From: Bryobacterales bacterium
Lineage (GTDB): Bacteria > Acidobacteriota > Terriglobia > Bryobacterales > Bryobacteraceae
Length of the DNA stretch: 64,000 nucleotides
Assembly: GCA_027459465.1 (NCBI GenBank)
Contig: DAIDIH010000410.1
Span: 21,192-85,191, forward strand
Reading direction: 5' to 3'
A program made the translations under genes and the position numbers. How positions within the stretch are numbered: position 1 is the stretch's first letter; every line of letters begins with the position of its first letter. Shown here piece by piece: positions 28,114-50,593 of the stretch. The notes under the pieces were generated by a model. The model was not told the origin of the DNA, did not search any database, and saw only the letters and a program-made list of their open reading frames with translations.

Positions 28114-28144
28114 CCCGCCAATCCCTGCGGGCATAGGAGCCCGC

Positions 28145-33539: not shown

Positions 33540-33546
33540 GTTATGA

Positions 33547-33876
33547 CTACGCCTCGACGGCCGTGAAACCCGTCTTCACGACCGTCTCCTTGATCTGTTC
33601 CTTCCGCACACGGCCCGGCTCATACTGCACGTAGATGTGCTTCTGCGATACCTTCGACCGGACTTCGCGCACGCCTGGAACCGCAGTCAGAGCCGCGCTG
33701 ATTTTCTCGGCGCACCCTTCGCAGACCATATTCGTCACGAGAAACTCCACGTCCGCGACTGGTCCAGATTCCGCCAGATCATCTTCGCGTTCCCGGTCAA
33801 TCCCACCGCTGCGGGGTCTCTTCAGAAGATAGGACAGTGGTTTTCTTTTCATCGAACCTCCAAAAATGAACTGCAT
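33547..33876 (-). CDS. HMA-domain metallochaperone (CopZ-like), start uncertain
   Basis: VTNMVCEGCAEKISAAL. Confidence 0.65.
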   Translation of the reverse strand: MQFIFGGSMKRKPLSYLLKRPRSGGIDREREDDLAESGPVADVEFLVTNMVCEGCAEKISAALTAVPGVREVRSKVSQKHIYVQYEPGRVRKEQIKETVVKTGFTAVEA

Positions 33877-33881
33877 CGATA

Positions 33882-34232
33882 TCAGGGGCGTATCGTTCGC
33901 TCAAAGGCCGCCTTGAGATCGGCGTCTGTGATCAACCCGTCGAGACGCTCAACCTCTTTGCCATCGCGCAGAATAAGCACCGTAGGGATGCTCTGAACTC
34001 CGAAGCGCTCTGCCACCGCCATGTCGCGTTCAATGTCCACACGATAAACAGGCAGGCGTCCTGCGTATTGCTCGGCCAGGCGCTCCAGGCGTGGCTCCAG
34101 AGTCCGGCAGGGTGGACACGTCGCCTGATAAAAATCCAGGGCGACCGGCCACTTTGTGTGAAACGCCCGTGCTTCGAGGTTGGCACTTGTTAAGGTCTCA
34201 ATCGTTGCCAATGTTGTGCTCCCTCGCTTCAA
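33882..34232 (-). CDS. Thioredoxin
   Basis: FYQATCPPCRTLEP (CPPC), QSIPTVLILRDGKEV. Confidence 0.75.
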   Translation of the reverse strand: MKRGSTTLATIETLTSANLEARAFHTKWPVALDFYQATCPPCRTLEPRLERLAEQYAGRLPVYRVDIERDMAVAERFGVQSIPTVLILRDGKEVERLDGLITDADLKAAFERTIRP

Positions 34233-34459
34233 TCAACGCGCGTCTCGTAACCGGCCTTACTTAAGCGTTCCGCGATCACAGCGGCATCCAGCTTTGCCGC
34301 GTCGAACAGCACCTCGATACGTTGGTTGCGCGCCTGCGCGCGAACCTGCCCCACGCCATCTAGGCCTTTCAGCAGGCCCTCGACGCGCTGCTCGCAGCCC
34401 TCACACACGAGCCGCTGATCGCCGATGACTTCAAAAGTAATGGACTTGAACATAGGCAA
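34229..34459 (-). CDS. HMA-domain protein
   Basis: QRLVCEGCEQRVEGLL. 76 aa. Confidence 0.65.
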   Translation of the reverse strand: MPMFKSITFEVIGDQRLVCEGCEQRVEGLLKGLDGVGQVRAQARNQRIEVLFDAAKLDAAVIAERLSKAGYETRVD

Positions 34460-34468
34460 AACCTTCCC

Positions 34469-36943
34469 TTAATGAGACTCCTGGAGCTGCGCCGGCGCTC
34501 CGGTTGCAATCTGCGGCGGATGCCCGACCGTCTTGATTGCCTCGAAGAAATAGTTGCCGCGGCCCCACAGGGAATTAATGAAGATCGCCGTTACGCTTGC
34601 CGCCATGGCGACCATGCCCCATATCGGGTAGACCAATCCGGTAGCGGCCAACGGAATCCCCAACCCGTTAAAAAGAAATGCGAGGGATACGTTTTGCACG
34701 ATCTTCCGGTAACTACGGCGGCTGATTTCGTAGGCATCGAGCACGGCGCCAACGCGCTTGTTGAGGATGACAACGTCGGCCGATTCGATAGCGATGTCGG
34801 CTCCGCTGCCGAAGGCGATGCCAACCTCGGCTTGCATTAGGGCCGGAGCGTCATTGATGCCGTCGCCTACCATGGCGACGCGAGCGGTCTCCTGCAGCTT
34901 GCGGATCATCGCCGCCTTCTCGGCTGGCAATACGCGCGCATGGACCTCTTCGATGCCAGCGGCACGGGCGAAATGCAGTGCCGCCTGCTCGTTGTCGCCG
35001 GTGATCAGGCTGGTGCGGATGCCGAGCGCGTGGAGCCGGCGCACCGTCTCCGCTGCGTCGGACCGCAGCGCGTCGCCGAGCGCCAGAAGACCGAGAAGCG
35101 TGCCCTCCCGTGCAGCCGCGATGACCGTCAGTCCGCGCCCCTCGAGTTCTTTGATGCGTTCGTCCTGGCGTGCAAGGTTCACTCCTTGGACTGCGAGAAA
35201 AACCGGGCTACCGACTATCAGCCTCGCTTGGCCAAGCCGCGCCCTTACACCGTGACCGGTCAACGCCTCGAATTCCTGCACCTCGGGCAGAGCGATACCG
35301 CGTTTAAACGCCTCTTCTACCACAGCCCGGGCGAGCGGGTGTTCGGACCCGGCCTCCACGGCTCCTGCGAGCGCGAGCAACTCCTCTTCTGAGAAGGCCA
35401 CCGGGACGATCTCCCGTAAAGCGGGACGACCCTCGGTCAGCGTGCCGGTCTTGTCGAAAACCACGCGCTGCACGCGTCGCAGGGCTTGAAACGCTTCGCC
35501 GGTGCGCATCAGCACGCCGCGCTCGGCCCCTTCGCCAGCGCCCCTTACGATCGACAGCGGCGCTGAGATCCCCACTGCGCAGGGATAGCCCATTACGAGC
35601 ACGCTCAGGCCGGCAAACATTGCACGCTGCAGATCGGGGGAGCCTCCGCCGATCACTGGCGCGAGCAGCCAGAAAAGGGTCGCGCCGGCCGCAGTGACGA
35701 GCACGATGGGTGTGTACACGCGCAGCACGCGGTCCACCAGGTGCAGCAGCCCCGGTTTCAGGGCACGGGCGTCTTCCACACTGCGTACCACTTGCCTCAG
35801 AAAACTCTCTTCACCCACCACCGTGACGCGCACGAGCAGCGTGCCGTGACCATTCAGGGCGCCACTCAGAGTCCGGTCTCCTTGGCGTTTCTCGACAGGT
35901 ACCGGCTCGCCAGTGACGAGCGATTCGTCTACGTCCGATTCCCCGGATTCGACCTGACCATCCACCGGAACCCGCTCACCTGGGCGGATTCTCACCAAGT
36001 CGCCGACGCGCACCTGTTCGAGCGGCACCGCTTCGTCCCTGCCATCCTTTACGACATAGGCAACATCAGGCTCAAGGTCCAGAAGCTTCTTGACCGCCTG
36101 CGAGCTGCGGGTTTTCACGATCAGCGACAGCCATTCGGAAAAGATGTGATACGTGAGGACCATGACCGCCACCGAGAAAAACGCCACTGTCGGATAGTTC
36201 GGCGGACGGAATGCCAGGCCGATCAAGCCGCCGGCGAGCCCTGCGAATGCCCCGAATTCAACCAACACGTGCTGGTTGAGAATGCCGCGCCGGAGCGCCA
36301 TGAAGGCCATGCGCACAATGTGCCCGCCCAGACCGAAAATGAGGAACAGGGCGAGCACTCCGGCGAGCCATGGGGTGGCTGCGCCGAACGCGCCGCGCAA
36401 CTGCAGAGCGTAGGTACCGGTCCCCAGCGCGGCTAGAAGCGCCGAGCCGACAACCGCCCAGCGCATGGCGTAGCTGCGCAAGACCACGAAGGAGAAGGCT
36501 ACCAGGCTCGCGATGGAAAACACGCACAGTGCGAACCAAGCGCTATTGACCGGGTACCCGGCCAACCCCATCGCTGCAATGCTCATGGCCAGTGCGGACA
36601 CGAAACGCCTGCGCTCGCGCACCAGCGCTCTCTCTTCTTCATCATACGGACGCAGCTTGCGCGGATCAGAGACGGTATAGCCGATATCCTTGAGCGTCTG
36701 CAGCAGGTCCTCGGCCCGCGCCACGCTCGGGTCGTACTCGATAAGCGCCTGTTCATGCGTCAGACTCACTGCGACTTTGTCCACGCCAGGCCGCCGGCCC
36801 AGCGCCTTCTCGATCGTGCCGGTGCACAACGAACAGTGCAGCCCCCCGATCCGCGCGCGGATTCGGCGGCGGCCCGGCAGTTTGGAGGGTTCCTCGCTCC
36901 AGAAATGTTGAGCGGATTCAACGGCCGTTGTGGTGGTACTCAT
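34469..36943 (-). CDS. P1B-type heavy-metal ATPase with atypical transmembrane metal-site motifs
   Basis: [22 protein letters not shown]; N-terminal HMA-like [10 protein letters not shown]6 is GYPCAVG (not CPC). Later TMs read LFNGLGIP and MAASV. Confidence 0.85.
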
Positions 36944-36964
36944 ACGACAAAACTCCCTTCCTTC

Positions 36965-37651
36965 CTAAAGCAGGGCGATGAACGCCCTTGTGTAATACAG
37001 GCTGACGAAGATGAGGGCGCAGCCGCTCGCAACCTGAATGGCCCCTCTCCAGGAACCCAACCGGGTGAACCGCATCAATGCTCCGGCGAAAAAACCCGCG
37101 AGCAGGAACGGCAACCCGCGCCCAATGCCGAACGCCAGCGCCAGGATGAACCCGTATTCAGGCCGGGCCTGGGCCGCCGCCACAGTCAGCAACAGCAGCA
37201 GCGGCGCGGCCGAGGTTCCCAGGCTGAAAATGAACCCGTAGAGAAACGTCCCGGCCAGACCGGTTCCGCGCAAGGAAGCGAGCTTCTGTACGCTCAGCCG
37301 CGGACCCCGGAACGCCGCCAGCGCGGCAATCATGGAAACCAGCGCCATCCCCAGAGCCCAGCAACGGCCGAACGATTCCGTCAGAACAGCCCCCAGACGG
37401 CCCGCCAGGCTGCCAAGAATGGTGAGGTTGACGACGATGCCGGCGAAGAACGCTATCGCGATCAGAAACCCATCGCGACGATTGTCCTTCGCGGAACTGC
37501 CCACCACGCCCGCGACTCCCAGGCCGACCGGAACCGTACACGGACACACCGCGCTTGCGACGACGCCGGCCAGGATCGTCACGAGCACCGCCCACAGCGA
37601 CCCGTGGGGCAAACTCGATGCGAATCTTTTGAGAAATTCGTCGAGCATCAT
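36965..37651 (-). CDS. CcdA/DsbD-family thiol-disulfide transmembrane electron transporter
   Basis: SAVCPCTVPVGLG in TM1, six-TM-like profile, FGIGRGLPF. Confidence 0.7.
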   Translation of the reverse strand: MMLDEFLKRFASSLPHGSLWAVLVTILAGVVASAVCPCTVPVGLGVAGVVGSSAKDNRRDGFLIAIAFFAGIVVNLTILGSLAGRLGAVLTESFGRCWALGMALVSMIAALAAFRGPRLSVQKLASLRGTGLAGTFLYGFIFSLGTSAAPLLLLLTVAAAQARPEYGFILALAFGIGRGLPFLLAGFFAGALMRFTRLGSWRGAIQVASGCALIFVSLYYTRAFIALL

Positions 37652-38037
37652 CGCGGCGCCTCGTCTGGGACAGGTGTACCGGCCTTGTAGCCGAGCTGGT
37701 TGATCGCCGCCACGAGCTGCGCCGGCAAAACCTTGCCTTCGCTGTAACGCACCAGCGCCTCGCGCCGTTCAAGGCTGATCTCCGCCTCCTGCACACCGGG
37801 AACAGATTTCAGGGCCTTCTTGACGTTGCCCGCACACACGGTGCAGATCATTCCCTCGACGGGAATTCGCACGGTCTTCGTTTGGCCGACAGCGGCTTGT
37901 GCGCTGACGCCGGCACGGTGCTGCCCTATGGCAATAATGCACACCGCGCCCGCGCCAAGTACGGCGATGGCGACGAGTATTAACCAAACTGGCGCTACTG
38001 CATTTCGTTTTTCAGCCATCGTCCTTCCCCTTCTCAC
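37648..38037 (-). CDS. Membrane-anchored HMA-domain (MerP-like) protein
   Basis: N-terminal TM, then VEGMICTVCAGNVKKAL. Confidence 0.65.
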   Translation of the reverse strand: MRRGRTMAEKRNAVAPVWLILVAIAVLGAGAVCIIAIGQHRAGVSAQAAVGQTKTVRIPVEGMICTVCAGNVKKALKSVPGVQEAEISLERREALVRYSEGKVLPAQLVAAINQLGYKAGTPVPDEAPR

Positions 38038-38049
38038 TGCGAGTCCTCA

Positions 38050-38460
38050 TCATTCCGAAGCCTCTTCGTCGAGACTCTCAAGAATTGGGCATTCCGCCAA
38101 GGGGCCGCACCCGTCGCACTGCTCAGTCAGTCCGCGCAAGGCTCTTTTCATTCTTTCGAGCGCCCGAATCTTTTGTTCGATATCGGCGAGCTTTGCGTCC
38201 GCCCGCGCGCGAATGTCGGCGCGCTTTGCCCCTGGCTTCATGCGAAGCGACAGCAACTCGCGTATCTCATTCAGGGAGAAGCCTAGTTCCTGCGCCCGTT
38301 TAATGAACCGCACCCGTCGCGCAGCCTCGCTCGGAAACATACGGTAGCCCGCTGGAGTCCGGGGCGGCTTGGGGAGAAGACCCTGCCGCTCGTAGTAGCG
38401 GATCGTTTCGAGGTTCACACCGCCCTGTTGCGCGAGGCGGCTAATCGTCAGCGTTTCCAT
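38050..38460 (-). CDS. MerR-family metal-responsive regulator (CueR-like C-terminus)
   Basis: Start at METLTISRLAQQGGVNLETIRYYERQGLL. C-terminal CDGCGPLAECPILESL. No Cys at the start of the dimerisation helix. Confidence 0.75.
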   Translation of the reverse strand: METLTISRLAQQGGVNLETIRYYERQGLLPKPPRTPAGYRMFPSEAARRVRFIKRAQELGFSLNEIRELLSLRMKPGAKRADIRARADAKLADIEQKIRALERMKRALRGLTEQCDGCGPLAECPILESLDEEASE

Positions 38461-38482
38461 CGCCTTCCTTGTCTCTGTCTGT

Positions 38483-38514
38483 AGTGTAAACCCCGTACCT
38501 AGGTACAGAGTCAA
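38483..38514 (-). promoter_or_regulatory. MerR-type promoter: TTGACT, 19-20 nt spacer with palindrome GTACCTAGGTAC, then TACACT
   Basis: Minus strand reads TTGACT CTGTACCTAGGTACGGGGTT TACACT. About 22 nt upstream of the regulator ATG. Confidence 0.6.
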
Positions 38515-38628
38515 GGGGAGATTTCGAGGAATTTATGGAATTTTAGCAGGAAGACGAAAGGATGAAGTTGGCCCGGAAGCAGACGCGCGCCGGGCGGTCC
38601 GAGGCGTGGGGGGTGGTTGTTGTTCTTG

Positions 38629-38675
38629 GAACCATAACCTTGCCGTTAAGCGGCAGAATTATGCGTTATGTCACA
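38629..38675. repeat. Right end of Tn7-like element A (inverted pair of sites ending ...GTCACA)
   Basis: gaaccataaccttgccg ttaag cggcagaattatg cgttatgtcaca. Same architecture as 49948-49992. Confidence 0.65.
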
Positions 38676-38690
38676 AGAAGGAATAATAAT

Positions 38691-38845
38691 TGTGACTTAA
38701 CCCATAAACTTGCCGCGTTGAGACCATAACTTCGCCGCGAAGAGGGCGCTCCTTGATAGCCAAATCAGTTCAGGATTGTTCCTGCGGAGTGGCGAGGAAG
38801 CATAATCCTGCCGAAAGCGCACGGTTGAGAAGCATATCCTTGCCG
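38691..38845 (+). repeat. Left-end array of four CATAAnCTTGCCG-type sites of element B
   Basis: Sites at 38701-15, 38720-42, 38797-813 and 38827-45, all in the same orientation. Confidence 0.7.
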
Positions 38846-38894
38846 CGAGCGCAGAGTTGCATGTACTATCGATTTAATTGTAGGATTGTGTTGT

Positions 38895-39506
38895 ATGCCT
38901 CGGAATCACCGCGATGCCCAACGGCGGCTCTTTGAGATCGCTGAAGGCCAGCAGGGTTTCTTCACCGCGAAGCAAGCGAAGGCTGCTGGTTTCGCCGAGA
39001 ACACCCACCCCTATCATGTGCAGGTCGGAAACTGGCTTCGCGAACATCGTGGGATCTACAGGCTCGCCCTTTTTCCGCCAGCGGAACATCCTGATCTGGT
39101 GAAGTGGGCGCTGTGGTCGAAGAATCGGGATGAGGTAATCGAAGGAGCCTACAGCCATCAGACCGCCCTGAGCCTATACGAGCTGTCGGATCTTAATCCG
39201 GCCAAGCTTCACATGACTGTTCCCACGCGTTTCCGGCGAAACAGCGAGGTTCCCGGCATCCTTGTGCTCCATTATGCGGACCTCCCCACCGAGGATGTCC
39301 AGACGGCACAGGGCTTCAAGTACACTCGGCCCCTGCGGACCATTCTCGATCTGATCGAAGCCGATAGTGTCGAGCGGACGTTTCTATGCCAGGCGCTGAG
39401 GCAGGCTCTCCATCGTGGATTGATCACGCGATCGGAGGTCAAACGTGTCAAGCTGCGCTCTCCAGCTCAGAGGCTGTTCCAGGATCTTCTGCGGCAGGTT
39501 GCGTAA
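38895..39506 (+). CDS. AbiEi-family antitoxin / transcriptional regulator
   Basis: GFFTAKQAKAAGFAENTHPYHVQVGNWLREHRGIYRL. TAATG overlap with the next gene. Confidence 0.65.
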   Translation: MPRNHRDAQRRLFEIAEGQQGFFTAKQAKAAGFAENTHPYHVQVGNWLREHRGIYRLALFPPAEHPDLVKWALWSKNRDEVIEGAYSHQTALSLYELSDLNPAKLHMTVPTRFRRNSEVPGILVLHYADLPTEDVQTAQGFKYTRPLRTILDLIEADSVERTFLCQALRQALHRGLITRSEVKRVKLRSPAQRLFQDLLRQVA

Positions 39507-40381
39507 TGCCGCGAGAGTATGCATCGGCGGATGCATTCCGCAGGGCGCTCGAAGTCCGTCTCAACAAGGCTGCCGAAACCGAACTGATTCAAGTAAATCG
39601 CTTGCGGCGCCAAGTGGCTTTTGACCGCCTGTTGGCGCGATTGTTTCGAATCGACCCAGTTCCCTGGGTGCTGAAGGGCGGCTACGCTTTGGAGCTTCGC
39701 TTCAGAACGGCGCGAGCGACGATCGATATTGACCTGACAGTGCAGAGAGTAGCGACCGCAGCGGAAGGCGATGCGAACCAGGTCCTGCGGGATATGCTTC
39801 AGGATGCCGCCAGCTTCAGCCTTGGAGATTGGTTTGAGTACACCATCGGTCCGCCGGTGCTAGATTTGGACGCGGCACCTTATGGCGGGGCTAGGTATCC
39901 CGTTGAAGCCCGTTTGGACGGGAGGATCTTCGCGCGCTTTCATCTGGACGCAGGTATTGGCGACGCAGTGATCCAACCAGTGGAGATTATCGAGTGCCGC
40001 GACTGGCTGAGTTTCGCAGGTATAGCCTCTGCGCGGGTTCAAACGATTTCGCAAGAGCAGCAGTTCGCCGAGAAACTCCACGCCTATACGCTGCCAAGGA
40101 GTTCCGCTAACAGCCGCGTGAAAGACCTTGTTGATCTTGCTCTTCTGATCGGATCTGATGGGCTCAACCCGAAGCGGACGGCGGATGCGGTGCATCTGAC
40201 ATTCGACCGAAGACGGACCCACGAGTTGCCACCAGCGCTGCTGGAACCGCCGCGGGATTGGCAGGGGCGCTTCCTGACGTTGGCCGAGGAATGCCAACTC
40301 GCAGGAGATATGGACACGGTGTTCCGCGACGTTGAGGGGTTCTTCGAGCGCACGATGAAGCATAGGGGAAGACGGAGCTAG
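39506..40381 (+). CDS. AbiEii/AbiGii-family nucleotidyltransferase toxin
   Basis: WVLKGGYALELRFRTARATIDIDLTV. Confidence 0.65.
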   Translation: MPREYASADAFRRALEVRLNKAAETELIQVNRLRRQVAFDRLLARLFRIDPVPWVLKGGYALELRFRTARATIDIDLTVQRVATAAEGDANQVLRDMLQDAASFSLGDWFEYTIGPPVLDLDAAPYGGARYPVEARLDGRIFARFHLDAGIGDAVIQPVEIIECRDWLSFAGIASARVQTISQEQQFAEKLHAYTLPRSSANSRVKDLVDLALLIGSDGLNPKRTADAVHLTFDRRRTHELPPALLEPPRDWQGRFLTLAEECQLAGDMDTVFRDVEGFFERTMKHRGRRS

Positions 40382-40389
40382 GTTGCAGT

Positions 40390-42855
40390 ATGGGCGAGCG
40401 GGATCCTAATACCGACCAACTGGAGACCATGCTCGCCGACTATCAGCGGCTGAAGGAGGAGAACGCCGCACTTCGCCGGCTCCTAGTTGAAAATGGAATC
40501 ACGATACCGGCGCCGCCGAAGAATTGCTCGCCACCTCCCGCGCAGCTACATGCGCAGGATGCGGGCGTCAATGAGCACTCGGGCAAAGAAGCAAAGATCG
40601 CCTTATTCCGCAGTTTGTTCCGAGGACGGGAAGATGTCTATGCGTTGCGTATGCGGTTCAAGAGCGGCGAGTGGGGTTATGTCCCGGCCTCAATCCGCGA
40701 TTGGAAGGCGGTCCTCTCTGCGGACGCGGCCCTTCGAAAGAAGGTCGACCAGAAGACCAGGAAGCTGTTGCCTCTCACAGACGAAGTACTGCGACAACAC
40801 TTGGAGGGCAAGCAGACCATCGGCGTCTATCCTTTGCTCGTAGACGAAACGTGCTGGTTTCTGGCCGCCGATTTTGACAAGAAAAGCTGGCAGGATGACG
40901 CCGCGGCATTCCTGGAAACGTGTCGTGAGCTGGGCGTATCGGCGGCACTTGAACGATCACGTTCGGGCAACGGCGGCCATCTCTGGATTTTCTTCGAGCG
41001 CGCCATCCCGGCGGCAACGGCGCGACAGCTCGGTAGTCTGATTCTCACCAGAACCATGGATCGGCGCCACCAGCTCGGGATGGACTCATACGACCGCTTC
41101 TTCCCCAACCAGGACACGATGCCAAAGGGCGGCTTTGGGAATCTCATCGCCCTCCCGCTGCAACGGATGCCGCGCCAGAACGACAACAGCGTGTTCCTCG
41201 ATTCGGATTTCTGTCCTCGTCTCGATCAATGGAAGTTTCTCTCGTGCGTACAGAAGATGGCGCCTGATTCCGTGGAAGCCCTCGTGCGTGAGGCCATGCG
41301 TACCGGCAGTGTAATCGGAGTTAGGATCAGCCTGGCGGATGAGGACGATGAGGCCGAGCCGTGGACCACGCCTCCCTCTAAACGGCGGATGCCAAAGCCG
41401 ATAGCCGGACCGCTCCCTGAACGCGTCGAGATTGTACGATCGAATCTTCTATACGTTGAGAAGAAAAATCTGCCGCCGGCGATGCTGAATCGCCTGTTGC
41501 GCCTGGCAGCGTTCCAGAACCCTGAGTTCTACAAGGCGCAGGCGATGCGCCTTTCCACATTCGGCAAGCCACGGATTATCTCGTGTGGCCAGGACTTTGC
41601 ACAGCATATTGCGCTGCCTCGCGGTTGCCTGGCGGAAGCCACAGCCTTGCTCGCGGATCACAAGATCAAAGTTGACTTCCGCGATGAGCGCTACCCCGGC
41701 ACTCCCATTGAAGCGAACTTCGACGGCCAACTGCGCACGTATCAAGAAGACGCTGTAGTCGGCATAGGCGATCACGACGATGGGATCCTGTGCGCGCCCA
41801 CAGCTTTCGGCAAAACAGCAGTTGCCGCTTGGCTGATCGCGAAACGAAAGGTGAACACGCTGGTTTTGGTCCACCGGCAACAGTTGCTCGACCAATGGCA
41901 TGAACGCCTGGCAATGTTTCTCGGGCTGCCACCGAACTCGATCGGGCAGATCGGCGGTGGAAAATCGGACCGGACCGGCTGCATCGATGTAGCGGTGATT
42001 CAAAGTCTCCACCGGAAAGACGAAGTGAAGGATTTCGTTGCTGAATACGGGCAAGTGATCGTGGATGAATGCCACCACATCTCCGCCTTCACGTTCGAAC
42101 AGGTGATGAAACAGGTGAAGGCAAGATACGTAGTTGGTCTGACGGCTACGCCGACGCGAAAGGACGGCCATCATCCGATCATCTACATGCAATGCGGTCC
42201 GATCCGGTTCAACATGAGCGCCCGGACCATGACCGAAGCGACGCCTTTCGAGCATAAGGTCATCCCACGTCATACCGATTTCCGGATGCCGGCCGAGATG
42301 ACGGATGTGGCGATTCAGGATGTCTATGCGGCCTTGGTCAGCGATTCGGCGCGCAACGCGATGATCGCCGGCGATCTCAGACGGGCCTTGGAGGCTGGAC
42401 GTTCGCCGCTCTTGCTCACCGGCCGAAAGGAGCATCTCCAGTTCTTCGCCACGGAAGTGGAAGGATTCGCCAAGCATATTTTCGTGCTCAAGGGCGGTAT
42501 GGGTAAGAAGCAACGTCGAACGATCGCGGAGGCGCTCGCGGCCGCCCCTGAAACCGAAGGCCGCGTGATTATCGCGACCGGCAGTTACATTGGTGAAGGC
42601 TTTGATGACGCGCGCCTCGATACTCTCTTTCTGGCTATGCCGATTTCGTGGAAAGGCACGCTGCAGCAGTACGTGGGGCGGCTACATAGGCTCCACGATG
42701 GCAAACGTGTTGTGCAGGTCTACGACTACATCGACCCGAATGTGCCGATGCTGGCCAGGATGTATGAACGACGGCAAAGAGGCTACGACGCCATCGGATA
42801 CACCATCGAACGTCCGCAGGCAGACTTGCTTAGCACCAACACCGCACAGATTTGA
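40390..42855 (+). CDS. Archaeo-eukaryotic-primase-like domain fused to a DEAD/DEAH SF2 helicase (resembles TOTE conflict-system primase proteins)
   Basis: LFRSLFRGREDVYA..IGVYPLLVDETCWFLAADFDKKSW..ERSRSGNGGHLWIFF..SYDRFFPNQDTMPKGGFGNLIALPLQ, then CAPTAFGKT, VIVDECHH, GLTATPTRKDG. Confidence 0.65.
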   Translation: MGERDPNTDQLETMLADYQRLKEENAALRRLLVENGITIPAPPKNCSPPPAQLHAQDAGVNEHSGKEAKIALFRSLFRGREDVYALRMRFKSGEWGYVPASIRDWKAVLSADAALRKKVDQKTRKLLPLTDEVLRQHLEGKQTIGVYPLLVDETCWFLAADFDKKSWQDDAAAFLETCRELGVSAALERSRSGNGGHLWIFFERAIPAATARQLGSLILTRTMDRRHQLGMDSYDRFFPNQDTMPKGGFGNLIALPLQRMPRQNDNSVFLDSDFCPRLDQWKFLSCVQKMAPDSVEALVREAMRTGSVIGVRISLADEDDEAEPWTTPPSKRRMPKPIAGPLPERVEIVRSNLLYVEKKNLPPAMLNRLLRLAAFQNPEFYKAQAMRLSTFGKPRIISCGQDFAQHIALPRGCLAEATALLADHKIKVDFRDERYPGTPIEANFDGQLRTYQEDAVVGIGDHDDGILCAPTAFGKTAVAAWLIAKRKVNTLVLVHRQQLLDQWHERLAMFLGLPPNSIGQIGGGKSDRTGCIDVAVIQSLHRKDEVKDFVAEYGQVIVDECHHISAFTFEQVMKQVKARYVVGLTATPTRKDGHHPIIYMQCGPIRFNMSARTMTEATPFEHKVIPRHTDFRMPAEMTDVAIQDVYAALVSDSARNAMIAGDLRRALEAGRSPLLLTGRKEHLQFFATEVEGFAKHIFVLKGGMGKKQRRTIAEALAAAPETEGRVIIATGSYIGEGFDDARLDTLFLAMPISWKGTLQQYVGRLHRLHDGKRVVQVYDYIDPNVPMLARMYERRQRGYDAIGYTIERPQADLLSTNTAQI

Positions 42856-42920
42856 GCCTCAAAACATTTCACATTGATCTTGTTTCTTCTTGTGTACGTG
42901 TGCTAGTATGCACCTATACG

Positions 42921-43256
42921 ATGCCGCTTAAAGGGTCGCCGGAAGACGTAAAACGCTGGTTTCAGGAGGCCACTCGCGGCCTGTGGCCTGTAGCGGCAGG
43001 ATCGCTGTCTTTTCGTAAGAGTCCCTGTATCCGGTCGCATTGCGGCCTTTGTGAATCAGGACAGGGACATTCCAGCTACGCGCTCTATGGAAAAAAGGGC
43101 AAGCGGCGTTTTTCAATCTATGTACCGGAGGAGTTGGCGCCAGACGTTGAGCGGGCCATCCGGAACGGGCGCAGCCTTCAACAGCTGATTGCGGAAGCCG
43201 GTCGAAGGTACGCATTGGCGTTGAAGGGAGAGCGTCGCTCACGGGACCACCGCTAG
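42921..43256 (+). CDS. Small Cys/His protein, DUF6788-like
   Basis: AAGSLSFRKSPCIRSHCGLCESGQGHSSYALYGKKGKRRFSIYVPEE. Confidence 0.5.
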   Translation: MPLKGSPEDVKRWFQEATRGLWPVAAGSLSFRKSPCIRSHCGLCESGQGHSSYALYGKKGKRRFSIYVPEELAPDVERAIRNGRSLQQLIAEAGRRYALALKGERRSRDHR

Positions 43257-43274
43257 ACACCAGGAGGTAGCGGT

Positions 43275-45983
43275 TTGTTAAGCGAAGCGGATTTCAGTGC
43301 TTGGTGCGGTCGGCTCAGGCTGAGCGCAAAGTGCTGCGAGATCGTCTCCGACGTGCGATCCCGGCCTCCTACTCGCCGCGTTGGCGGCGGGCGCAGCAAT
43401 GTAAGCGGGCGCTATCCCAGTCGGAAGATGGGAGTCACCATTCAGTTTGAAAGCCATCGCGTCGAGCTGCCCGCCATCTATGAAATGGAACACGACCCGA
43501 GCGTCTTGGAGTATTACGATCAGCCGCCGTCGATTTCGCTCGCCTACGCTTCCGCCAACGAAAGACGGCTTTCCGTCCTCCACACGCCGGACTTCTTTGC
43601 GATTCGAGCCGACGCGGCGGGCTGGGAAGAGTGCAAGACTGAACAGGATTTGGAAAAGCTCGCCGAGAAGAGCCCCAATAGGTACCGGCGGGACTCGAAT
43701 GGCGGCTGGCAGTGTCCTCCGGGCGAAAGCTACGCAACCCAGTTCGGCCTCTATTACCGCGTCCGCTCGTCCGACGCCATCAACTGGACACTCCAACAGA
43801 ATCTTCAGTTCCTGGAAGACTATTTCCGATTTGACGCGATGGCCATCAGCCCGAGGTCGCGCGAAGCTGTCGCTGCTGAGATTGCGCGGCAACCGGGACT
43901 CGTTTTGAGCGATTTGATTGATCGAACGAAAGAGGTGGCGAGCCGAGATGATATCTATGTGATGATTGCCGCGGGGGAGATCTTCGCGGACCTCGGCGCC
44001 GCCGCGATTGCACAACCCGCCGCCGTCGCCATGTTCGCTAATGCTGAAATGAGCGCCGCAATCCGGCGGATTGACGGATCACTGAGCGCAGCGACGGGGA
44101 AGGTGGAAATCGCAGTAGAGCCCGGCGCGCCGGTTTCGTGGGATGGCACGGAGTGGCGAATCGTGAACGTGGGCGACCGGAACATCAGCCTGCTTGGCGT
44201 CAATGGGGCGCTTACGGAGTTGCCCCGCGACACCTTCGACAGATTGCTGTCGGTTGGGTCTTTGAAGAATGCCGCAGCCGGATCACCACAGCTTTCAGAA
44301 GCGACCAGGATTCTGAGTGGCGCCAACGAAGCCGATCTTCGCGAAGCGAACAGGCGTTTCGATTTGGTGAGGAAGCATATCAATGGCGAACGCCTGTCCG
44401 TGCCGTTGCGAACGATACGATTTTGGACGGCTCTGTATCGAGCTGCGCAAGAAAAAGATGGCAGCGGATATCTCGGCCTGCTTCCAAGGGCCCGCTTTCG
44501 AGGCAACCGTACGAGCAGACTTTCACAAAAGGCTCAAGCGCTCACCGAGGAGTGGATTGCAAAGGATTACGAAAGCCTTAAGCAGAGATCCAGGCGCTCG
44601 TCATGGGCCCTACTGAAGGCGAGATGCGAGGAGCAGGACCTCCAGGCGCCCAGCTATAAGACGTTTTGCTTATGGGTGCGGAAGCGCCCCGTTTTCGAGC
44701 AGACCTTGAAGAGACAAGGTCCGCGCGCCGCGTACGCTCATGCCGCCATCTACCTCGAACTGAGTGGCACGACACCCCGCCACGGGGACCGACCCTTCGA
44801 GATCGCCCATATCGATCACACTGAGTTGGATGTCGAGTTGGTGTGCTCACAGACAGGCCGCCTGCTCGGGCGTCCGTGGCTGACGCTCCTCACGGACGCT
44901 TATTCGCGCCGTGGACTGGCGTTCTACCTGACATTCGACCCGCCGAGCTATCGGTCCTGCATGATGATCTTGCGCGAGTGCGTGCGCAGGCATGCACGAT
45001 TGCCGCAAATCATCGTGATCGATGGAGGCGCGGAGTTCCAGAGCACCTATTTCGAAACGCTCCTGGCTCGGTACGAGTGCATCAAAAAGACCAGGCCGCC
45101 GGCCAAGGCGCGCTTTGGCGCAGTTTGCGAACGCCTGTTCGGAACCACCAACACGCAGTTCATCCATAATCTTCGAGGCAATACGCAGATAACCCGCAAT
45201 GTTCGACAGGTGACCCGGTCTGTCAACCCGAAGGCGCTTGCGGCCTGGACACTCAGTGAGCTTTACGATCGCACCTCTGAGTACCTGTACGAGGTTTATG
45301 AGATGAGTGACCATCCGGCCTTGGGGCAAAGTCCCCGACAAGCTTTTCAGGCGGGATTGGAAGCTGGCGGGCTTCGCCCGCAGCGGATGATCCCGTATGA
45401 CCAAGAGTTCCTGGTCGCCACGCTTCCTACGACCCCGAAGGGAACAGCCGTTGTTGCAGCGGGCCGCGGCGTGAAGATCAATCATATTTACTACTGGTCG
45501 GGCAACTTCCGGGAGCCCGGCGTCGAGAATGAGACGGTCCCAGTCCGTTACGACCCATTTGATGCGGGAACGGCATACGCGTTTGTTGGGAAGCAATGGG
45601 TGGTATGCCAGTCGGAGCACTTCGCAGCGTTCCGGGGACGATCTGAAAAGGAGGTGCTGATCGCGAGCCGGGAGATCCAGAAGCGAAGACAAGAACACTC
45701 ACGCCATGGTGGAATCACCGCCCGCCGGCTGGCAGATTTCCTGGTTTCGGTCGAGTCTGACGAAGCGCTGCTTCAACAGCGCTTCAGAGATCGTGAGAGT
45801 ACAGCCGTGCGTGGTGGCATGATAGTTGACCATCCGGCTTTGGAAGTAGTTGAACAACATCAGTCCCGCCCTGAGCTGGACGATCACGCCGCCCTCACAA
45901 CCAATCTGCAGGCGTACCGGCCTGCGCTTCTTGACATTATCGCCACTCAAGCAGGTCTTCTGTCGACAATCCTTGTTCCGTAA
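43275..45983 (+). CDS. TnsA-TnsB fusion transposase (restriction-fold endonuclease N-domain + DDE/rve core)
   Basis: N-domain FESHRVELPAIYEMEHDPSVLEYYDQPP...LHTPDFFAIRADAAGWEECK. Core IAHIDHTELDV..LLTDAYSRR..IVIDGGAEFQS...CERLFGT. 902 aa. Confidence 0.75.
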   Translation: MLSEADFSAWCGRLRLSAKCCEIVSDVRSRPPTRRVGGGRSNVSGRYPSRKMGVTIQFESHRVELPAIYEMEHDPSVLEYYDQPPSISLAYASANERRLSVLHTPDFFAIRADAAGWEECKTEQDLEKLAEKSPNRYRRDSNGGWQCPPGESYATQFGLYYRVRSSDAINWTLQQNLQFLEDYFRFDAMAISPRSREAVAAEIARQPGLVLSDLIDRTKEVASRDDIYVMIAAGEIFADLGAAAIAQPAAVAMFANAEMSAAIRRIDGSLSAATGKVEIAVEPGAPVSWDGTEWRIVNVGDRNISLLGVNGALTELPRDTFDRLLSVGSLKNAAAGSPQLSEATRILSGANEADLREANRRFDLVRKHINGERLSVPLRTIRFWTALYRAAQEKDGSGYLGLLPRARFRGNRTSRLSQKAQALTEEWIAKDYESLKQRSRRSSWALLKARCEEQDLQAPSYKTFCLWVRKRPVFEQTLKRQGPRAAYAHAAIYLELSGTTPRHGDRPFEIAHIDHTELDVELVCSQTGRLLGRPWLTLLTDAYSRRGLAFYLTFDPPSYRSCMMILRECVRRHARLPQIIVIDGGAEFQSTYFETLLARYECIKKTRPPAKARFGAVCERLFGTTNTQFIHNLRGNTQITRNVRQVTRSVNPKALAAWTLSELYDRTSEYLYEVYEMSDHPALGQSPRQAFQAGLEAGGLRPQRMIPYDQEFLVATLPTTPKGTAVVAAGRGVKINHIYYWSGNFREPGVENETVPVRYDPFDAGTAYAFVGKQWVVCQSEHFAAFRGRSEKEVLIASREIQKRRQEHSRHGGITARRLADFLVSVESDEALLQQRFRDRESTAVRGGMIVDHPALEVVEQHQSRPELDDHAALTTNLQAYRPALLDIIATQAGLLSTILVP

Positions 45984-46241
45984 AATCCAGGCGTGGTGCC
46001 CTGCGTGCTTTGAAGATTGGCGACAGAGCGGCTCGTTGCTGTACTTGCCCCTATTGTGGGCTTTACGGATGGTCACTATGTGCGTGAAGCACAGGCGTCC
46101 GCTGTCGGACATGTGCCCTCACTGCGGACGGCATTTCGGACCGCTTAATGCCCGGAGCAGGCCCGGTTATTGCTCGCGCTGCCGGCGGTGGCTTGGTCAA
46201 AGTTCAACGGCGTCGCAACAGGACTTCAGGCAAGTGCGGTG
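45850..46241 (+). pseudogene. TniQ/TnsD-like target selector, 5' fragment; its own N-terminus is missing and it is cut by IS66
   Basis: IQAWCPACFEDW...CVKHRRPLSDMCPHCGRHF...YCSRCRRWL zinc-finger region. The frame opens inside the tnsAB 3' end. Confidence 0.6.
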
Positions 46242-46249
46242 GTATTTGT

Positions 46250-47134
46250 TTACCGTGTGAGATTGCCGCTTAACCGCTGTCGCGCGGCCGCCGCGAGCGG
46301 ATAAACATAGATGTCTTTGACTGCCTGACCATGAGCTTTGTGCTCGCGGTCCATGCGACCGCGTCCGGTGGTTTGCCCGATATAGATCCAGTTGGCAGCC
46401 CGATAGCACGTCCCGCGAAAACGAGTCGGATCCACCAGCGTTTCCAGCAGCAGGGGACGACACCCATATCGGATCTCCCAATCGCGCGGCATTTGCCGGG
46501 CACTCAGTGCCAGGATTTTGCTGGCCAGTCCTTTGACTTGCACCCAAGGCAGCATCAGAAATCGGCCATTGTTCACGATCGACTGGAGATTGTGTCGCCG
46601 CTGCTCGTCGCTCCAGCCGATCCAGACATCCCGCGCCTGCATCTTCCAAGCCGGCGAGGTCCAGAGCAGACACGCCAACTCCCGGTCGCGATTCCGCACC
46701 CAATAGCGCAGGTGTGCGCCGAACGGCACACGGCATCCCAGATAGTGATACCGTTCCATCTGCTCGCGCCACCGGCGGCTCTCGGCTGGTCCTTCCACCA
46801 GAGCCAGTTCCAGGGGCTCGCATTCGCGGGCGGCGCCTGCCACCGGTGTGGGTTCCCAGTGCGGCCGGGATCCATCCGCCCGCCGTGGACCTCTCCCGCC
46901 CCGTTGGCGCAGCTCGGGAAGTTGCAAGAACCCTTCGCCCTGGAGCCGCTCCAGCAGTTGCCGGCACTCGTGGTTCTTCAACCCTCCGTTGGGCCGTGTC
47001 CAGTTCAGCAATTCGCACACGGTACGCGCGATTTCGGTGACTCCCAGGGCAGAAAACTCGCGCGCCATCTGGCGTATCAACTCCAGTTCGTCGGCGCGAA
47101 ACGTGCGGCCGCAAAAGGTCAGGGATTCGGGCAT
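46250..47134 (-). CDS. DUF4338-domain protein (DruA-like)
   Basis: YHYLGCRVPFGAHLRYWV..LLWTSPAWKMQARDVWIGW..NNGRFLMLPWVQVKGLASKIL..LLETLVDPTRFRGTCYRAANWIYIGQTTGRGR. Confidence 0.65.
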   Translation of the reverse strand: MPESLTFCGRTFRADELELIRQMAREFSALGVTEIARTVCELLNWTRPNGGLKNHECRQLLERLQGEGFLQLPELRQRGGRGPRRADGSRPHWEPTPVAGAARECEPLELALVEGPAESRRWREQMERYHYLGCRVPFGAHLRYWVRNRDRELACLLWTSPAWKMQARDVWIGWSDEQRRHNLQSIVNNGRFLMLPWVQVKGLASKILALSARQMPRDWEIRYGCRPLLLETLVDPTRFRGTCYRAANWIYIGQTTGRGRMDREHKAHGQAVKDIYVYPLAAAARQRLSGNLTR

Positions 47135-47155
47135 GGAAGGGGAGAAAGGCGCGGC

Positions 47156-48445
47156 TCAGCCCGCGCCGGGCACAATGTCCAGGATTACGGCGCGGGGCGC
47201 ACGCAACAGCCTCACACCGCGCGTGAAAGCGTCCTTGCTCTGCTGCCAGCAGGTGCGCAGCACGCTGGCCAGGATCTGGTGCGTGCGCGCTCCTGCCCAG
47301 GTTCGGCTCCCGCCCCACACCTTGCGCGCGATCACCATCCCGCGAATGGCGCGTTCTGCCGTATTGTTGGTGGCATCCAAACCGAAACAGTGCAGGAAGG
47401 TGAACAGCCAGAGCTGCTCATGTTCGAGGTGGCGCGCCAGCCGACGGTTCGCCGCGTTCCGGCGGCGTGTTTCCAGTATCCGGTCCAGTTTCGCCTCCAG
47501 CTTTCCGGTGACGGTCCGCCTGCCGTGTTCGGAGATCTCGCCCGCCGCATAGCGCTCACGCAACTCCAAGCTGGTCCGGAGCAGTTGCTCCACAGCCCGT
47601 GGGAAAGTCCATGCCGCCGGCGGGGCGATCTGTGCCATCTCGCGGCAGCGCCTGAGCAGATGGGCCAGACAACTTTGATGAAACGCAAACTGGAACCGAT
47701 AATAGGGCGCCCAGCCGTCATGAATCAGAAATCCATCATATTTGGCCCCCAAGATCTTCACCGACTGCTCGTATCCGCGGCCCGGCAGAATGGCGTAGAC
47801 GGTCACCTGCGCGCTCACCGCCACGTGCAACCACTGGAGCTGCCCGGCCACTCTCCAGCCGGTTTCGTCCATGCCGTTAACAGGAGCTTGCCGCGCGGTT
47901 TCCACCAGTCTGTCATAGGTCGGCGCCGCCCGGCCCGCCATCCGCGCCAGGGCCCGATATAGCCCTCCGCGACTGACCTCCAGCCCGAATCCATAGCACA
48001 GGACTTGTCGCGTGTGCCCCAGCGACAGCCCCATCTGCTTGTTCAGAATCGCCGCCAAGGTCACCGCTTCCGGCCCCAACTGCACGCTACCGACTCCCAC
48101 TGCATCCGAGGTCTGTAACTGATGGCGTCCCTGTACGCGGCGTCGGCAATCGCGGCAGCGACCCACGGCGATATCGAAACGACGTACGACGGTCCGCCGC
48201 ACAATCTCTTCCTGATACTGCGTTTCGCAGCTTTCCGACTCCACGCCGCCGCCGCAATGCGGGCAGTGATCCGGCAAGGGAACCGCGATGCGTTCATCCA
48301 CCCGCGCCGGGATGGGGCGGCATGCCTGTCGGCCGTAGCGGCCGCCCGATTTACGGCCCGGTCGCTTCGGGTTGGCTTTCGGCCTGCCCCGTGAATGAGG
48401 CGCGGCCTGACGCCTGGTAGCACGCAAAGCTGCTTCCAGCTCCAC
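47156..48445 (-). CDS. IS66-family transposase; its N-terminal coiled-coil lies in another frame at 48351..48593
   Basis: CPHCGG...CRDCRRRV zinc finger, MDETGWRV, LIHDGW. The upstream ORF ends ..LKQETERLRR, where this ORF begins ELEAALRATRRQ. Confidence 0.8.
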   Translation of the reverse strand: MELEAALRATRRQAAPHSRGRPKANPKRPGRKSGGRYGRQACRPIPARVDERIAVPLPDHCPHCGGGVESESCETQYQEEIVRRTVVRRFDIAVGRCRDCRRRVQGRHQLQTSDAVGVGSVQLGPEAVTLAAILNKQMGLSLGHTRQVLCYGFGLEVSRGGLYRALARMAGRAAPTYDRLVETARQAPVNGMDETGWRVAGQLQWLHVAVSAQVTVYAILPGRGYEQSVKILGAKYDGFLIHDGWAPYYRFQFAFHQSCLAHLLRRCREMAQIAPPAAWTFPRAVEQLLRTSLELRERYAAGEISEHGRRTVTGKLEAKLDRILETRRRNAANRRLARHLEHEQLWLFTFLHCFGLDATNNTAERAIRGMVIARKVWGGSRTWAGARTHQILASVLRTCWQQSKDAFTRGVRLLRAPRAVILDIVPGAG

Positions 48446-48685
48446 GGCGCAGGCGTTCCGTTTCCTGTTTCAAGCGCTCGATCTCTTTGCGCAGCTTGTC
48501 GTTTTCCTGCTGCGCTCGATCCAACTCTCGTTTGGGAACGAACTCGATGCTCTCGGGGTGCAGGTTTCTCGCCGGCCGTCCCGTTGGTTTCATCCAACCC
48601 TACGGTAGCCGAAACCGCCCCATTTGTCCAGCGAAATCTTGGGGAGGTCTTATTTCAGAAGTCTGACAGGCCGGTAAACAAATAC

Positions 48686-49957
48686 GTGCGGTGCACCGGC
48701 GACCACATATGGATGGCGGGTTGTGTTGGCGATGTACTGGCTTCGATGCCGAAGTTTGAGGAAGATCAACTCGGTGACATCCTGCGCGAGAACATGGCCA
48801 AACTCGGTAACAAGGTTGCGGACGGGAATCATCGTGCCTTCTCCGTCCTCACAGGTGTTCATTCGGACAATGCATCGGGATGGTTGGCCGGCCGGCACCG
48901 CCCTCGTCCGGCCGTGCTGTTTCAGCTCTGTCACCGATTGCAGATCTCAACTTCGGAGCTGCTTCGTCGAAATGGCAACTGGAGCGTGCCGGCTGAAATC
49001 GCCGCCACTGGATTCGCCACCAGCAGGCGCGGCGCCTGGCGCGATGACCCGGACCGAATAAAGGCAGCGCTCCTTGATGCTCTCAAAGAAGATCCGCCTC
49101 CGAGTCTTAAGGACATTGCCTTTCGTTATGACTACAGAACATGCATTCCGTTGAGGCGATTGGACCCACACACTTGCAAACAGATCGCTCTTCGATACCG
49201 AGCCTTTCACAGACGCTGGTACAACACCTGGGTCGTGCGCGACAGAGAATGCACACGGCAGGAGATCGAGTGCATTCTTAGAGAGTCCCTTGCTCGCGAG
49301 CGGCCGATCCCGATCACGCAGATCGCGGCGCAGCTAGGGCACGAGTCCCCGCAGCGATTACAAACACACTTTCCGGAGCTCTGTAAAGCAATCGCTCAAA
49401 AGGCGGCCGAGTGTCGAAGAGAATCCCGCGAACGGTTGCGGGCGGCCTTGGTCAGGGCCATAGCAGAAGACCCGCCACCGACAGCTAGATCTTTGTCAAA
49501 GCGAATGGGATGCAGCCAGAGTGCGCTGGACTACCATTTCCCGGATCTATGTAGGAAACTGCAGGCGACGAGAAGGGCGTCGAGAGCGTTCGAACGCGAG
49601 GCGATCAGACTGAAAATCGACACACTCGCAACCGAAATGAAAAATGCGAGCGTACGCGAGATCTGCCTGAAAGCCGGAGTCACATCGGAGTTCCTACTTA
49701 CCAACTTTCCGGCCTTATATAAACAGATCGCTTCCAAGTATATGGCGCGCGTAAATGAACTGAGACAGCAGCGTCGTGCGGCGCTTCACCTTGATGTTCA
49801 AAGGGCGGTCATTGGACTGTCTCGGGCAGGTGCGACACCGACGCTGAGTAAAGTTATCCCGCTTCTCAGCTCGGAAGCCGCGCGGGACTGGAATCGGATC
49901 CGTCAAGAGATCAGCGATGCGATCCGCCGACTTAATTCGCCCGTGTTGGAAGCATAA
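48686..49957 (+). pseudogene. TniQ/TnsD-like target selector, 3' part
   Basis: The frame continues VRCTGDHIWMAGCVGDVL... with repeated HTH-like modules. Removing the IS and one duplication copy rejoins ..QDFRQVR|CTGDH.. in frame. The stop lies inside the right-end site. Confidence 0.6.
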
Positions 49958-49992
49958 CCTTGCCGAACGGCAAAGTTATGGGTTAAGTCACA
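49948..49992. repeat. Right end of Tn7-like element B (inverted pair of sites ending ...GTCACA)
   Basis: ggaagcataaccttgccg aa cggcaaagttatg ggttaagtcaca. Confidence 0.75.
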
Positions 49993-50026
49993 ATAATAAT
50001 ACCGCTGAAGGAGGGAGCAGCGCAAA

Positions 50027-50593
50027 ATGAACGAGAAGGTGCAATTTCGAACGAACGTCCCCGTAGAGGTCGCCTTAAAGTACAACGACGGCAAGGAAGT
50101 GACTGGCCAGTATGGCGATCAGGTGCTGTACACGCTCACTGATGGGCGGGTGATGTACGTCCCGCCGATCGTCAAGGGGAAGATCGACGAAGCAGGGATC
50201 AGCAAGGGCGAATTGTTTACGATCACGAAGGCGGAGAAAAAGAACGGCACTCGCCGCACAATCGAATGGGTTATCGGAACAAACGAAGACGTGCCGTCGA
50301 AAAGTGCGACACAGACGAAGGCGTCGGGCAGCGGACCTGCACAACCGGTAAGCAACGGCTCCGGGGGTAGCACGACTCAAGGAAACAGCAACGGCCGAAG
50401 GACGATTCCACCCGGAGATCCGAAGGGCTTTCTCGCAACCGGACAGGGCCAGTTTCTTCTGCAGGCTTTCTCAGCAGCCGTTGATTTGGCCGCTTGTACG
50501 GAACGGTATGCATCGACCTGTGGAATGCAGTTCCAATTCACGGGCGAGGATTTGCGTGAGATCGGCCTGAGTATTTACAGGAGTGGGAAGTAG
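50027..50593 (+). CDS. Hypothetical protein, 34 nt downstream of the Tn7-like insertion point
   Basis: RBS GAAGGAGGGA. MNEKVQFRTNVPVEVALKYNDGKEV... with a Gly/Ser/Thr-rich linker. Confidence 0.5.
   Translation: MNEKVQFRTNVPVEVALKYNDGKEVTGQYGDQVLYTLTDGRVMYVPPIVKGKIDEAGISKGELFTITKAEKKNGTRRTIEWVIGTNEDVPSKSATQTKASGSGPAQPVSNGSGGSTTQGNSNGRRTIPPGDPKGFLATGQGQFLLQAFSAAVDLAACTERYASTCGMQFQFTGEDLREIGLSIYRSGK

Follow-up and report, generated by a model that had tools for sequence, protein, structure and literature searches.

A Tn7-like transposon of the TnsAB-fusion clade, very probably a recently inactivated copy, in a Bryobacterales metagenome bin

Introduction

How can a Tn7-like transposon carry a fused TnsA-TnsB transposase and recognisable ends, and yet no gene for the regulator TnsC? 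This question is raised by a locus in a 64,000-nucleotide stretch of DNA (hereafter the window) from contig DAIDIH010000410.1 of a Bryobacterales bacterium (assembly GCA_027459465.1; a 6.58-Mb bin of 410 contigs, 94.6% complete, with 7% contamination). An earlier note on this DNA, made from the letters alone, had described a Tn7-like element with a TnsA-TnsB fusion, no TnsC and a truncated TniQ/TnsD target selector, and had suggested that a deletion removed tnsC and the 5' part of tniQ before an insertion sequence (IS) of the IS66 family split what remained. Here, we compared the locus with its relatives. The results indicate that window positions 38691-49992 are very probably a Tn7-like transposon of the TnsAB-fusion clade, and a copy that was inactivated recently.

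A family scan with one genome per species yielded 503 loci, mostly from Acidobacteriota (Bryobacterales, Terriglobia, Pyrinomonadaceae) and Nostocales, with some from Chloroflexota, and the closest relatives of the window element came from Bryobacterales and Terriglobia bins. Among these, the soil metagenome contig L002 encodes a TnsAB 85% identical to that of the window and carries an AbiE pair, an AEP-helicase gene and a DUF6788 gene, followed by tnsAB (884 amino acids), tnsC (387 amino acids, AAA_22/TniB) and tniQ (632 amino acids); its 5-bp flanks do not match each other. The tnsAB-tnsC-tniQ core is present in loci L002-L006.

Results

Element ends and target-site duplication

In order to delimit the element, we located its termini, the flanking duplication and the repeated sites at both ends:

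38686..38690, no strand: left target-site duplication ATAAT, read from the sequence, identical to 49993-49997
38691..38845, + strand: cargo-proximal transposon end with terminal TGTGAC and four direct TnsAB-binding-site-like repeats, aligning with the end of L002
49953..49992, - strand: tniQ-proximal transposon end, in which the terminal site and an inward-facing inverted site form a palindromic pair ending in ...GTCACA, called from site matches
49993..49997, no strand: right target-site duplication ATAAT, read from the sequence

The 25-bp terminus TGTGACTTAACCCATAAACTTGCCG at 38691-38715 recurs as an inverted copy with two mismatches at 49968-49992 (chance expectation, 0 matches), and both termini begin with TGTGAC and agree at 23 of 25 positions, as the earlier note had read them. 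The ATAAT that it had reported is likewise found at both flanks and represents the 5-bp target-site duplication expected of the Tn7-like clade. Because ATAAT occupies 49993-49997, the element proper stops at 49992; the previously given span of 38691-49997 thus holds for its start, while its end counted the duplication.

Scanning the window for CATAAnCTTGCCG-like sites gave 19 matches (4.6 expected), concentrated at the element ends. Four lie in direct orientation on the + strand at 38703, 38725, 38801, and 38833, and an inverted pair is found at the other end (49953, + strand; 49968-49980, - strand), so that both arrangements named in the note could be located. The TGT...ACA termini are therewith accompanied by multiple, asymmetrically placed candidate transposase-binding sites. 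The inverted-pair architecture of the tniQ-proximal end, 40-41 bp long, recurs in 38 clade ends, including the Nostoc and PmcCAST loci; it is a trait of the whole clade, not peculiar to the window copy, and agrees with the published description of binding sites in both orientations at one end in the TnsAB-fusion clade (PMC9881144).

A natural TnsA-TnsB fusion with conserved catalytic residues

43275..45983, + strand: tnsAB, natural TnsA-TnsB fusion of 902 amino acids with a TTG start, assigned by Pfam, profile and fold matches

Pfam searches of the 902-amino-acid open reading frame (ORF) placed Tn7_TnsA-like_N (27.3 bits against a cut-off of 26.5), rve, and Mu-transpos_C in a single polypeptide. 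A profile built from 47 relatives matched PDB entry 9BW1 chain M, the natural TnsAB of PmcCAST in its TnsABCD transpososome, from end to end (1320 bits), and also matched the TnsB chains 7PIK, 7SVW, and 8RDU. The AlphaFold model of the window protein reached a pLDDT of ~90 over residues 60-260 and was poor in the DDE core. Foldseek searches with the predicted structure retrieved 9BW1, TnsB of Tn7 and ShCAST, Mu transposase, and Tn7 TnsA 1T0F (E 2.5e-5), in line with the earlier proposal that a TnsA-type endonuclease is joined to a DDE core.

Residues E72, D106, E119, and K121 of the nuclease are invariant columns among the 47 relatives, the DDE residues D514, D583, and E619 are invariant in the family, and all seven are present in the window protein. 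D106, which lies in the HTPDFF motif, is equivalent to D106 of McCAST TnsAB, whose mutation to alanine abolished cut-and-paste transposition and led to cointegrates (PMC9881144). A TnsA-type PD-(D/E)XK nuclease, complete with its catalytic E, D, and K, thus shares one polypeptide with a TnsB core of the DDE (RNase H-fold) type, which is followed by a C-terminal domain of the Mu-transposase type. The fusion is real, and both the catalytic domains of TnsAB and the element ends remain intact. Nor is the fusion unusual. More than 3,400 proteins of 830-900 amino acids are homologous to the window TnsAB over its full length, and the fusion is the family norm, a described and defining trait of a known, large clade (PMC9881144, PMC10293859, PMC11915506), to which the PmcCAST (I-B2) and McCAST (I-D) cores also belong.

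The window element has no tnsC

Profile searches with the Tn7-type components recovered the TnsA and TnsB domains and a partial TniQ, but no TnsC. A TnsC hidden Markov model (HMM) built from 75 clade sequences and run with filters off against all six-frame pieces of the window gave no match, the best hit (E 2.8) lying outside the element, and no TnsC was found in the whole 6.58-Mb assembly at E <= 0.01. With this search (--max, six frames), a hidden or divergent TnsC in the interval 45.9-50.0 kb was rejected, and the earlier observation that no AAA+ regulator ORF exists between 45983 and 49957 stands. A 543-amino-acid frame on the + strand (46331-47962) has no family match, runs antisense to the IS genes and was taken as spurious.

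Relatives, by contrast, nearly all carry an AAA+ regulator gene beside the transposase gene, among them L093, L094, and L002. Across 84 related loci, tnsC was matched in all but five and lay nearly always directly 3' of tnsAB. Of these five, L030, L066, and L074 end at or just past tnsAB, L019 has neither tnsC nor tniQ in 10 kb of downstream flank, and in L040 tnsC lies ~6.3 kb further downstream instead. The contigs of L005 and L084 are cut inside tnsC, and in L039 tnsC is present and tniQ was not found. Together, the losses in L019 and L039 show that such decay is not unique to the window.

A deletion joining the end of tnsAB to the middle of tniQ

Comparison with intact relatives, as the earlier note had proposed, allowed us to map the deletion to a single junction:

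45916..45917, no strand: junction of a ~1.5-kb deletion (corresponding to L002 7526-9023) at a 4-bp CGTA microhomology, from alignment to L002, L093, and L094

Window positions 38691-45916 are colinear with L002 297-7525 at 86.7% identity, and the alignment resumes at L002 9024, leaving ~1,498 bp missing. L093 is 99.2% identical to the window over 1,785 bp, exactly up to 45916, and then continues with ...Y-A-E-F-stop and the tnsC start MASAAIPRR. From the other side, L094 (93% identical) retains the 3' end of tnsC and 110 undeleted tniQ codons before the breakpoint; it has the same element end and the same downstream gene as the window. Across the breakpoint, L093 reads CAGGCGTA followed by TGCGG, L094 reads AAACCGTA followed by CCAGCCTGCGC, and the window joins CAGGCGTA to CCGGCCTGCGC. 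This three-way comparison places the deletion between two CGTA tetranucleotides. In this single event, tnsAB very probably lost its last three codons, tnsC disappeared entirely, and tniQ lost its first 110 codons, consistent with the loss of tnsC and of the 5' part of tniQ suggested before.

The deletion reaches one step further than had been noted, in that it also cut the TnsC-binding hook off TnsAB. Codons 1-881 of tnsAB are authentic, whereas the last 21 codons (45918-45980) are out-of-frame tniQ DNA that replaces the native ...Y-A-E-F ending. TnsAB proteins of relatives end in ...Y-(A/G/E)-E-F; the window protein keeps Y881 and has neither the phenylalanine nor a free C-terminus at this position, and hence no C-terminal hook. 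The hook of PmcTnsAB, made up of its last seven residues, binds the TnsC heptamer; truncation of the hook or mutation of its aromatic residues abolishes transposition, and Tyr895, Phe898, and the terminal carboxylate are essential (PMC11915506). From the missing phenylalanine and free C-terminus, we infer that TnsC recruitment by the window TnsAB is lost as well, and by analogy the protein would probably not respond to TnsC supplied in trans.

A tniQ remnant split by an IS66-family element

What is left of tniQ lies in two parts on either side of an IS, whose genes are on the minus strand, while the element's own genes are all on the + strand:

45850-46260, + strand: TniQ fragment ORF, from the ORF list
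45917..46241, + strand: tniQ/tnsD remnant part 1, codons ~111-218 of an intact gene of 632-639 amino acids, zinc-finger region, from Pfam TniQ and tblastn
46242..48685, - strand: IS66-family insertion sequence of 2,444 bp, with 14-bp inverted repeats, transposase and 8-bp duplication
46250-47134, - strand: DruA/DUF4338-like ORF inside the IS, downstream of the transposase (Pfam E 1.7e-44)
47156-48445, - strand: DDE_Tnp_IS66 transposase (Pfam E 5e-36; NF033517 at 227.5 bits against a cut-off of 180)
48694..49957, + strand: tniQ/tnsD remnant part 2, C-terminal region with helix-turn-helix repeats, its stop codon inside the transposon end

The TniQ frame opens at 45850 directly after a stop codon, which bears out the description of a frame that begins about 40 codons before the zinc-finger region and overlaps the 3' end of tnsAB. 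Its first codons are out-of-frame tnsAB codons, and no ATG precedes the zinc finger. Of the 142 positions in the Pfam TniQ profile, the frame covers only 94-142, and 1-93 are missing; by tblastn, the window TniQ aligns with residues 114-631 of the L003 protein at 63% identity. With codons 1-110 deleted and the rest split by the IS, the element has no complete TniQ/TnsD target selector.

Perfect 14-bp inverted repeats (GTATTTGTTTACCG) bound the IS, and the 8-bp duplication GTGCGGTG lies on either side of it, at 46234-46241 and 48686-48693. In-silico excision of the IS and one copy of the duplication restores a single 551-codon frame, L094 shows the empty site, and the IS is single-copy in the assembly. 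The split of tniQ by this element is thus upheld; it may have come before the deletion or, as proposed, after it. The IS resembles the IS66 family in its DDE transposase, which passes NF033517, in its terminal inverted repeats and in the 8-bp duplication. It differs in carrying the DruA/DUF4338-like ORF, which looks like a passenger or accessory gene of the IS, and in that the ORFs scanned inside it gave no Pfam or NCBIfam match to TnpA or TnpB.

The IS66 transposase itself seems to be split by a one-base frameshift on the minus strand: a 178-amino-acid frame (48597-48061) with a coiled-coil N-terminus and a 429-amino-acid frame (48445-47156) would join if one base were absent near CGCCGTGGAG (48430-48460). 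L094 has a tniQ frameshift of its own just after the first zinc-finger motif (~700-1024), so that the gene is called as two ORFs; this reflects either a sequencing error or independent decay.

Alternative explanations for the missing tnsC

Some points weigh against reading the locus as an inactivated copy with a hook-less transposase. The loss of hook function is drawn from a homologue ~54% identical to the window protein, the siblings that define the breakpoint come from different samples and short contigs (2.1 and 2.3 kb), and the junction at 45916/45917 is known from the assembled contig and not from reads. In addition, a helper could lie on an unassembled or unbinned contig, given a 94.6%-complete bin of 410 contigs with 7% contamination.

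An alternative origin of the junction is illegitimate recombination between two elements stacked at the same site, which would have joined the tnsAB end of one to the middle of the other's tniQ. Elements of this family do stack here, a relic lying only 15 bp away (see below), and the two sides of the junction differ in their affinities: the left is closest to L002 and L093, whereas the tniQ part is nearer to L003/L094 than to L002 (63% versus 50% protein identity). However, the same ATAAT at both ends is expected for a single insertion and not for a fusion of two, and tniQ modules differ generally, even between otherwise close relatives, so that mixed similarity needs no chimera. We therefore regard such a fusion as improbable.

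Still less likely is that the absence of tnsC reflects a collapsed or mis-joined metagenome contig. The fragmentation and contamination of the bin speak for an assembly or binning artefact, but the junction microhomology of just 4 bp is far below any assembler overlap, the contig is 141 kb long with both sides of the junction colinear with relatives, and the IS insertion has a clean 8-bp duplication.

Finally, the element might represent a naturally TnsC-independent variant that needs no more than TnsAB and a short TniQ for transposition. A full-length TnsAB that keeps every invariant family residue speaks for this reading, but we consider it most improbable and rejected a naturally TnsC-less family, since tnsC immediately follows tnsAB in the sibling whose tnsAB is 99.2% identical, L019 is the one relative with ample flank that also has none, the short TniQ frame begins out of frame, has no ATG before its zinc finger and is interrupted by the IS, and no independent insertions of the deleted form occur in the genome.

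Mobility of the inactivated copy

Based on homology to PmcCAST and Tn7, intact members of the family would move in several steps. A TnsD-type TniQ would bind the start of the target gene and load a ring of the AAA+ protein TnsC, which in turn would recruit TnsAB via the last seven TnsAB residues; the TnsA domain would then cut the 5' strands, and the DDE domain would cut and join the 3' strands with a 5-bp stagger, so that the tniQ-proximal end would come to lie 32-34 bp ahead of the target ATG. In the window copy, the ~1.5-kb deletion between two CGTA tetranucleotides and, before or after it, the entry of the IS66-family element into the remaining tniQ would have ended this process.

On its gene content, the window copy could not move by itself. 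The assembly contains one tnsAB and only three element termini (two of the main element and one of the relic), and a search for a complete helper copy found none. With no tnsC, second tnsAB, or further element ends, the element would be immobile in this assembly, which sharpens the previous view of an element that is probably immobile or mobilisable only in trans. Absence of a helper elsewhere in the organism is probable.

A probable attachment-site gene

50027..50593, + strand: probable attachment-site gene, 188 amino acids, ATG 34 bp from the element end, homologues in L003, L004, and L094

Among relatives, 32-34 bp separate the tniQ-proximal end from the ATG of the gene that follows. In L003, L004, and L094, whose TniQ proteins are 63-93% identical to that of the window, this is a homologue of the 188-amino-acid gene, with its start 33-34 bp from the end. 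In L002, whose TniQ is 50% identical to that of the window, the end adjoins a DUF1257 gene instead. The target gene thus co-varies with TniQ, which supports TnsD-type recognition of the target-gene 5' end, a mode of targeting that we infer from these comparisons.

The 188-amino-acid protein has no significant Pfam, NCBIfam, or PHROG family match. Its gene is patchily distributed (5/41 related genomes) and is followed by one for a Cas4-like PD-(D/E)XK nuclease, which together argue that the target is an accessory gene. Neither an occupied nor an alignable empty attachment site was seen among the matches to the gene in these five genomes.

A related Tn7-like element in L006 lies between genes for a DUF6094 methyltransferase and an SNF2-like helicase (L006 4241-5278 and 16456-17640). 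This flanking gene pair is homologous to an adjacent pair at window positions 26410-30424. TniQ variants of this family therefore seem to differ in the gene that they target within one type of mobile island.

Cargo module and a DUF6788 gene upstream of tnsAB

The genes between the cargo-proximal end and tnsAB are the following:

38886-39506, + strand: AbiEi antitoxin-like gene (Pfam AbiEi_4, E 2e-8)
39386-40381, + strand: ORF of the AbiEii nucleotidyltransferase toxin-like gene (Pfam AbiEii, E 4e-30), whose true start is probably near 39507, as in L002
40390..42855, + strand: AEP-primase (TOTE-type) fused to an SF2 helicase, 821 amino acids (Pfam AEP-TOTE, E 1e-89; ResIII, E 1.5e-23)
42921..43256, + strand: DUF6788 small CCCH zinc protein, 111 amino acids, directly upstream of tnsAB (Pfam DUF6788, E 1.2e-4, below the gathering cut-off)

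The AbiEi/AbiEii pair is also found in L002 and nine other loci, and the AEP-TOTE primase-helicase occurs at the same position in 15 related loci. The identities of this cargo (60-90%) track those of the transposase, indicating that AbiE and AEP-TOTE form a stable travelling module and not random cargo. Loci in which these genes keep this position upstream of DUF6788-tnsAB number 10-15 and include L002, L006, L010, L012, L013, L016, L026, L027, L029, L039, and L045.

A DUF6788 homologue is located 14-138 bp upstream of tnsAB in 45 of the 84 related loci, all of them from Acidobacteriota, while Nostoc, Pyrinomonadaceae, and Chloroflexota loci are without this gene. Residues C36, C41, C44, and H50 are invariant. 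The structure, predicted with confidence (pLDDT 87), consists of a helix, a three-stranded sheet, and a 40-residue helix, and matched no PDB fold with E < 0.09. The literature searched contains no mention of DUF6788.

As a tentative proposal, which we hold to be possible but less than probable, the acidobacterial branch of the TnsAB-fusion clade may constitute an undescribed Tn7-like sub-type. It would be defined by a four-gene core, in which the conserved DUF6788 gene directly precedes tnsAB-tnsC-tniQ, and by TnsD-type selectors that direct insertion to accessory genes, 32-34 bp ahead of their start codons. These targets would belong to mobile or defence islands and would not be conserved housekeeping genes or tRNAs, and the window copy would be a dead member of the sub-type.

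Comparison with known Tn7-like systems

PmcCAST (type I-B2, Nostoc sp. 'Peltigera membranacea cyanobiont' 210A; 9BW1) encodes a TnsAB fusion of the same length that can be aligned from end to end and is ~54% identical to the window protein (locus L054). It shares the gene order tnsAB-tnsC-tnsD and the hook motif ...Y-x-E-F with the intact relatives of the window element, and has a palindromic site pair at its tnsD-proximal end. In contrast, the window copy is without tnsC, has a hook-less TnsAB and a broken tniQ, and its ORFs showed neither a Cascade gene nor a CRISPR array or second TniQ. In place of a tRNA, it probably targets a protein-coding gene at the 5' end, and the acidobacterial branch has a DUF6788 gene upstream of tnsAB, which the Nostoc loci do not.

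With Tn7 of E. coli (TnsA, TnsB, TnsC, TnsD, TnsE), the window element has in common a PD-(D/E)XK nuclease with a DDE transposase, a TniQ-domain target selector, TGT...ACA ends with several asymmetric transposase-binding sites, and a 5-bp duplication after site-specific insertion beside a gene. Unlike in Tn7, TnsA and TnsB are a single polypeptide, the transposition genes point to the attachment-site end while the cargo lies at the opposite side, sites in both orientations occur at one end, and there is no TnsE. McCAST has the same fused transposase with the equivalent D106 and both-orientation sites at one end; it differs in its hosts (here, Bryobacterales and Terriglobia bins) and target genes, and the window copy is defective.

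Overall, the locus is a case of ordinary transposon decay in a known, abundant family: one microhomology deletion and one IS hit, a textbook transposon death that is well documented because near-identical intact siblings exist. In soil Acidobacteriota, the clade from which the I-B2 and I-D CRISPR-associated transposons arose is abundant. Its elements travel there together with the AbiE pair, the AEP-primase/helicase gene, and the gene of an uncharacterised zinc protein, and the 5' ends of accessory genes seem to serve them as attachment sites. It is intact relatives such as L002 or L003, not the window copy, that may be of interest to Tn7 and CRISPR-associated transposon researchers.

A neighbouring relic element

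32028..38675, + strand: second, tandem relic element of the same family, with an intact tniQ-type end at 38633-38675 and no tns genes

The tniQ-type end of the relic lies 15 bp before the main element. At its other end, three subterminal sites remain, and the 3' end of a PIN-domain gene (31527-32033) takes the place of the terminal site, the cut falling exactly at the stop codon of that gene. The relic carries cargo of the metal-resistance type, with genes for an MFS transporter, an HMA P-type ATPase, a DsbD-like protein, and MerR. The main element inserted between this relic and its target gene and is therefore younger than the relic.

In L029, a tniQ-type transposon end (6388-6427) is found 35 bp upstream of another copy's DUF6788-tnsAB with no cargo-side end in between, an arrangement that may represent a truncated tandem.

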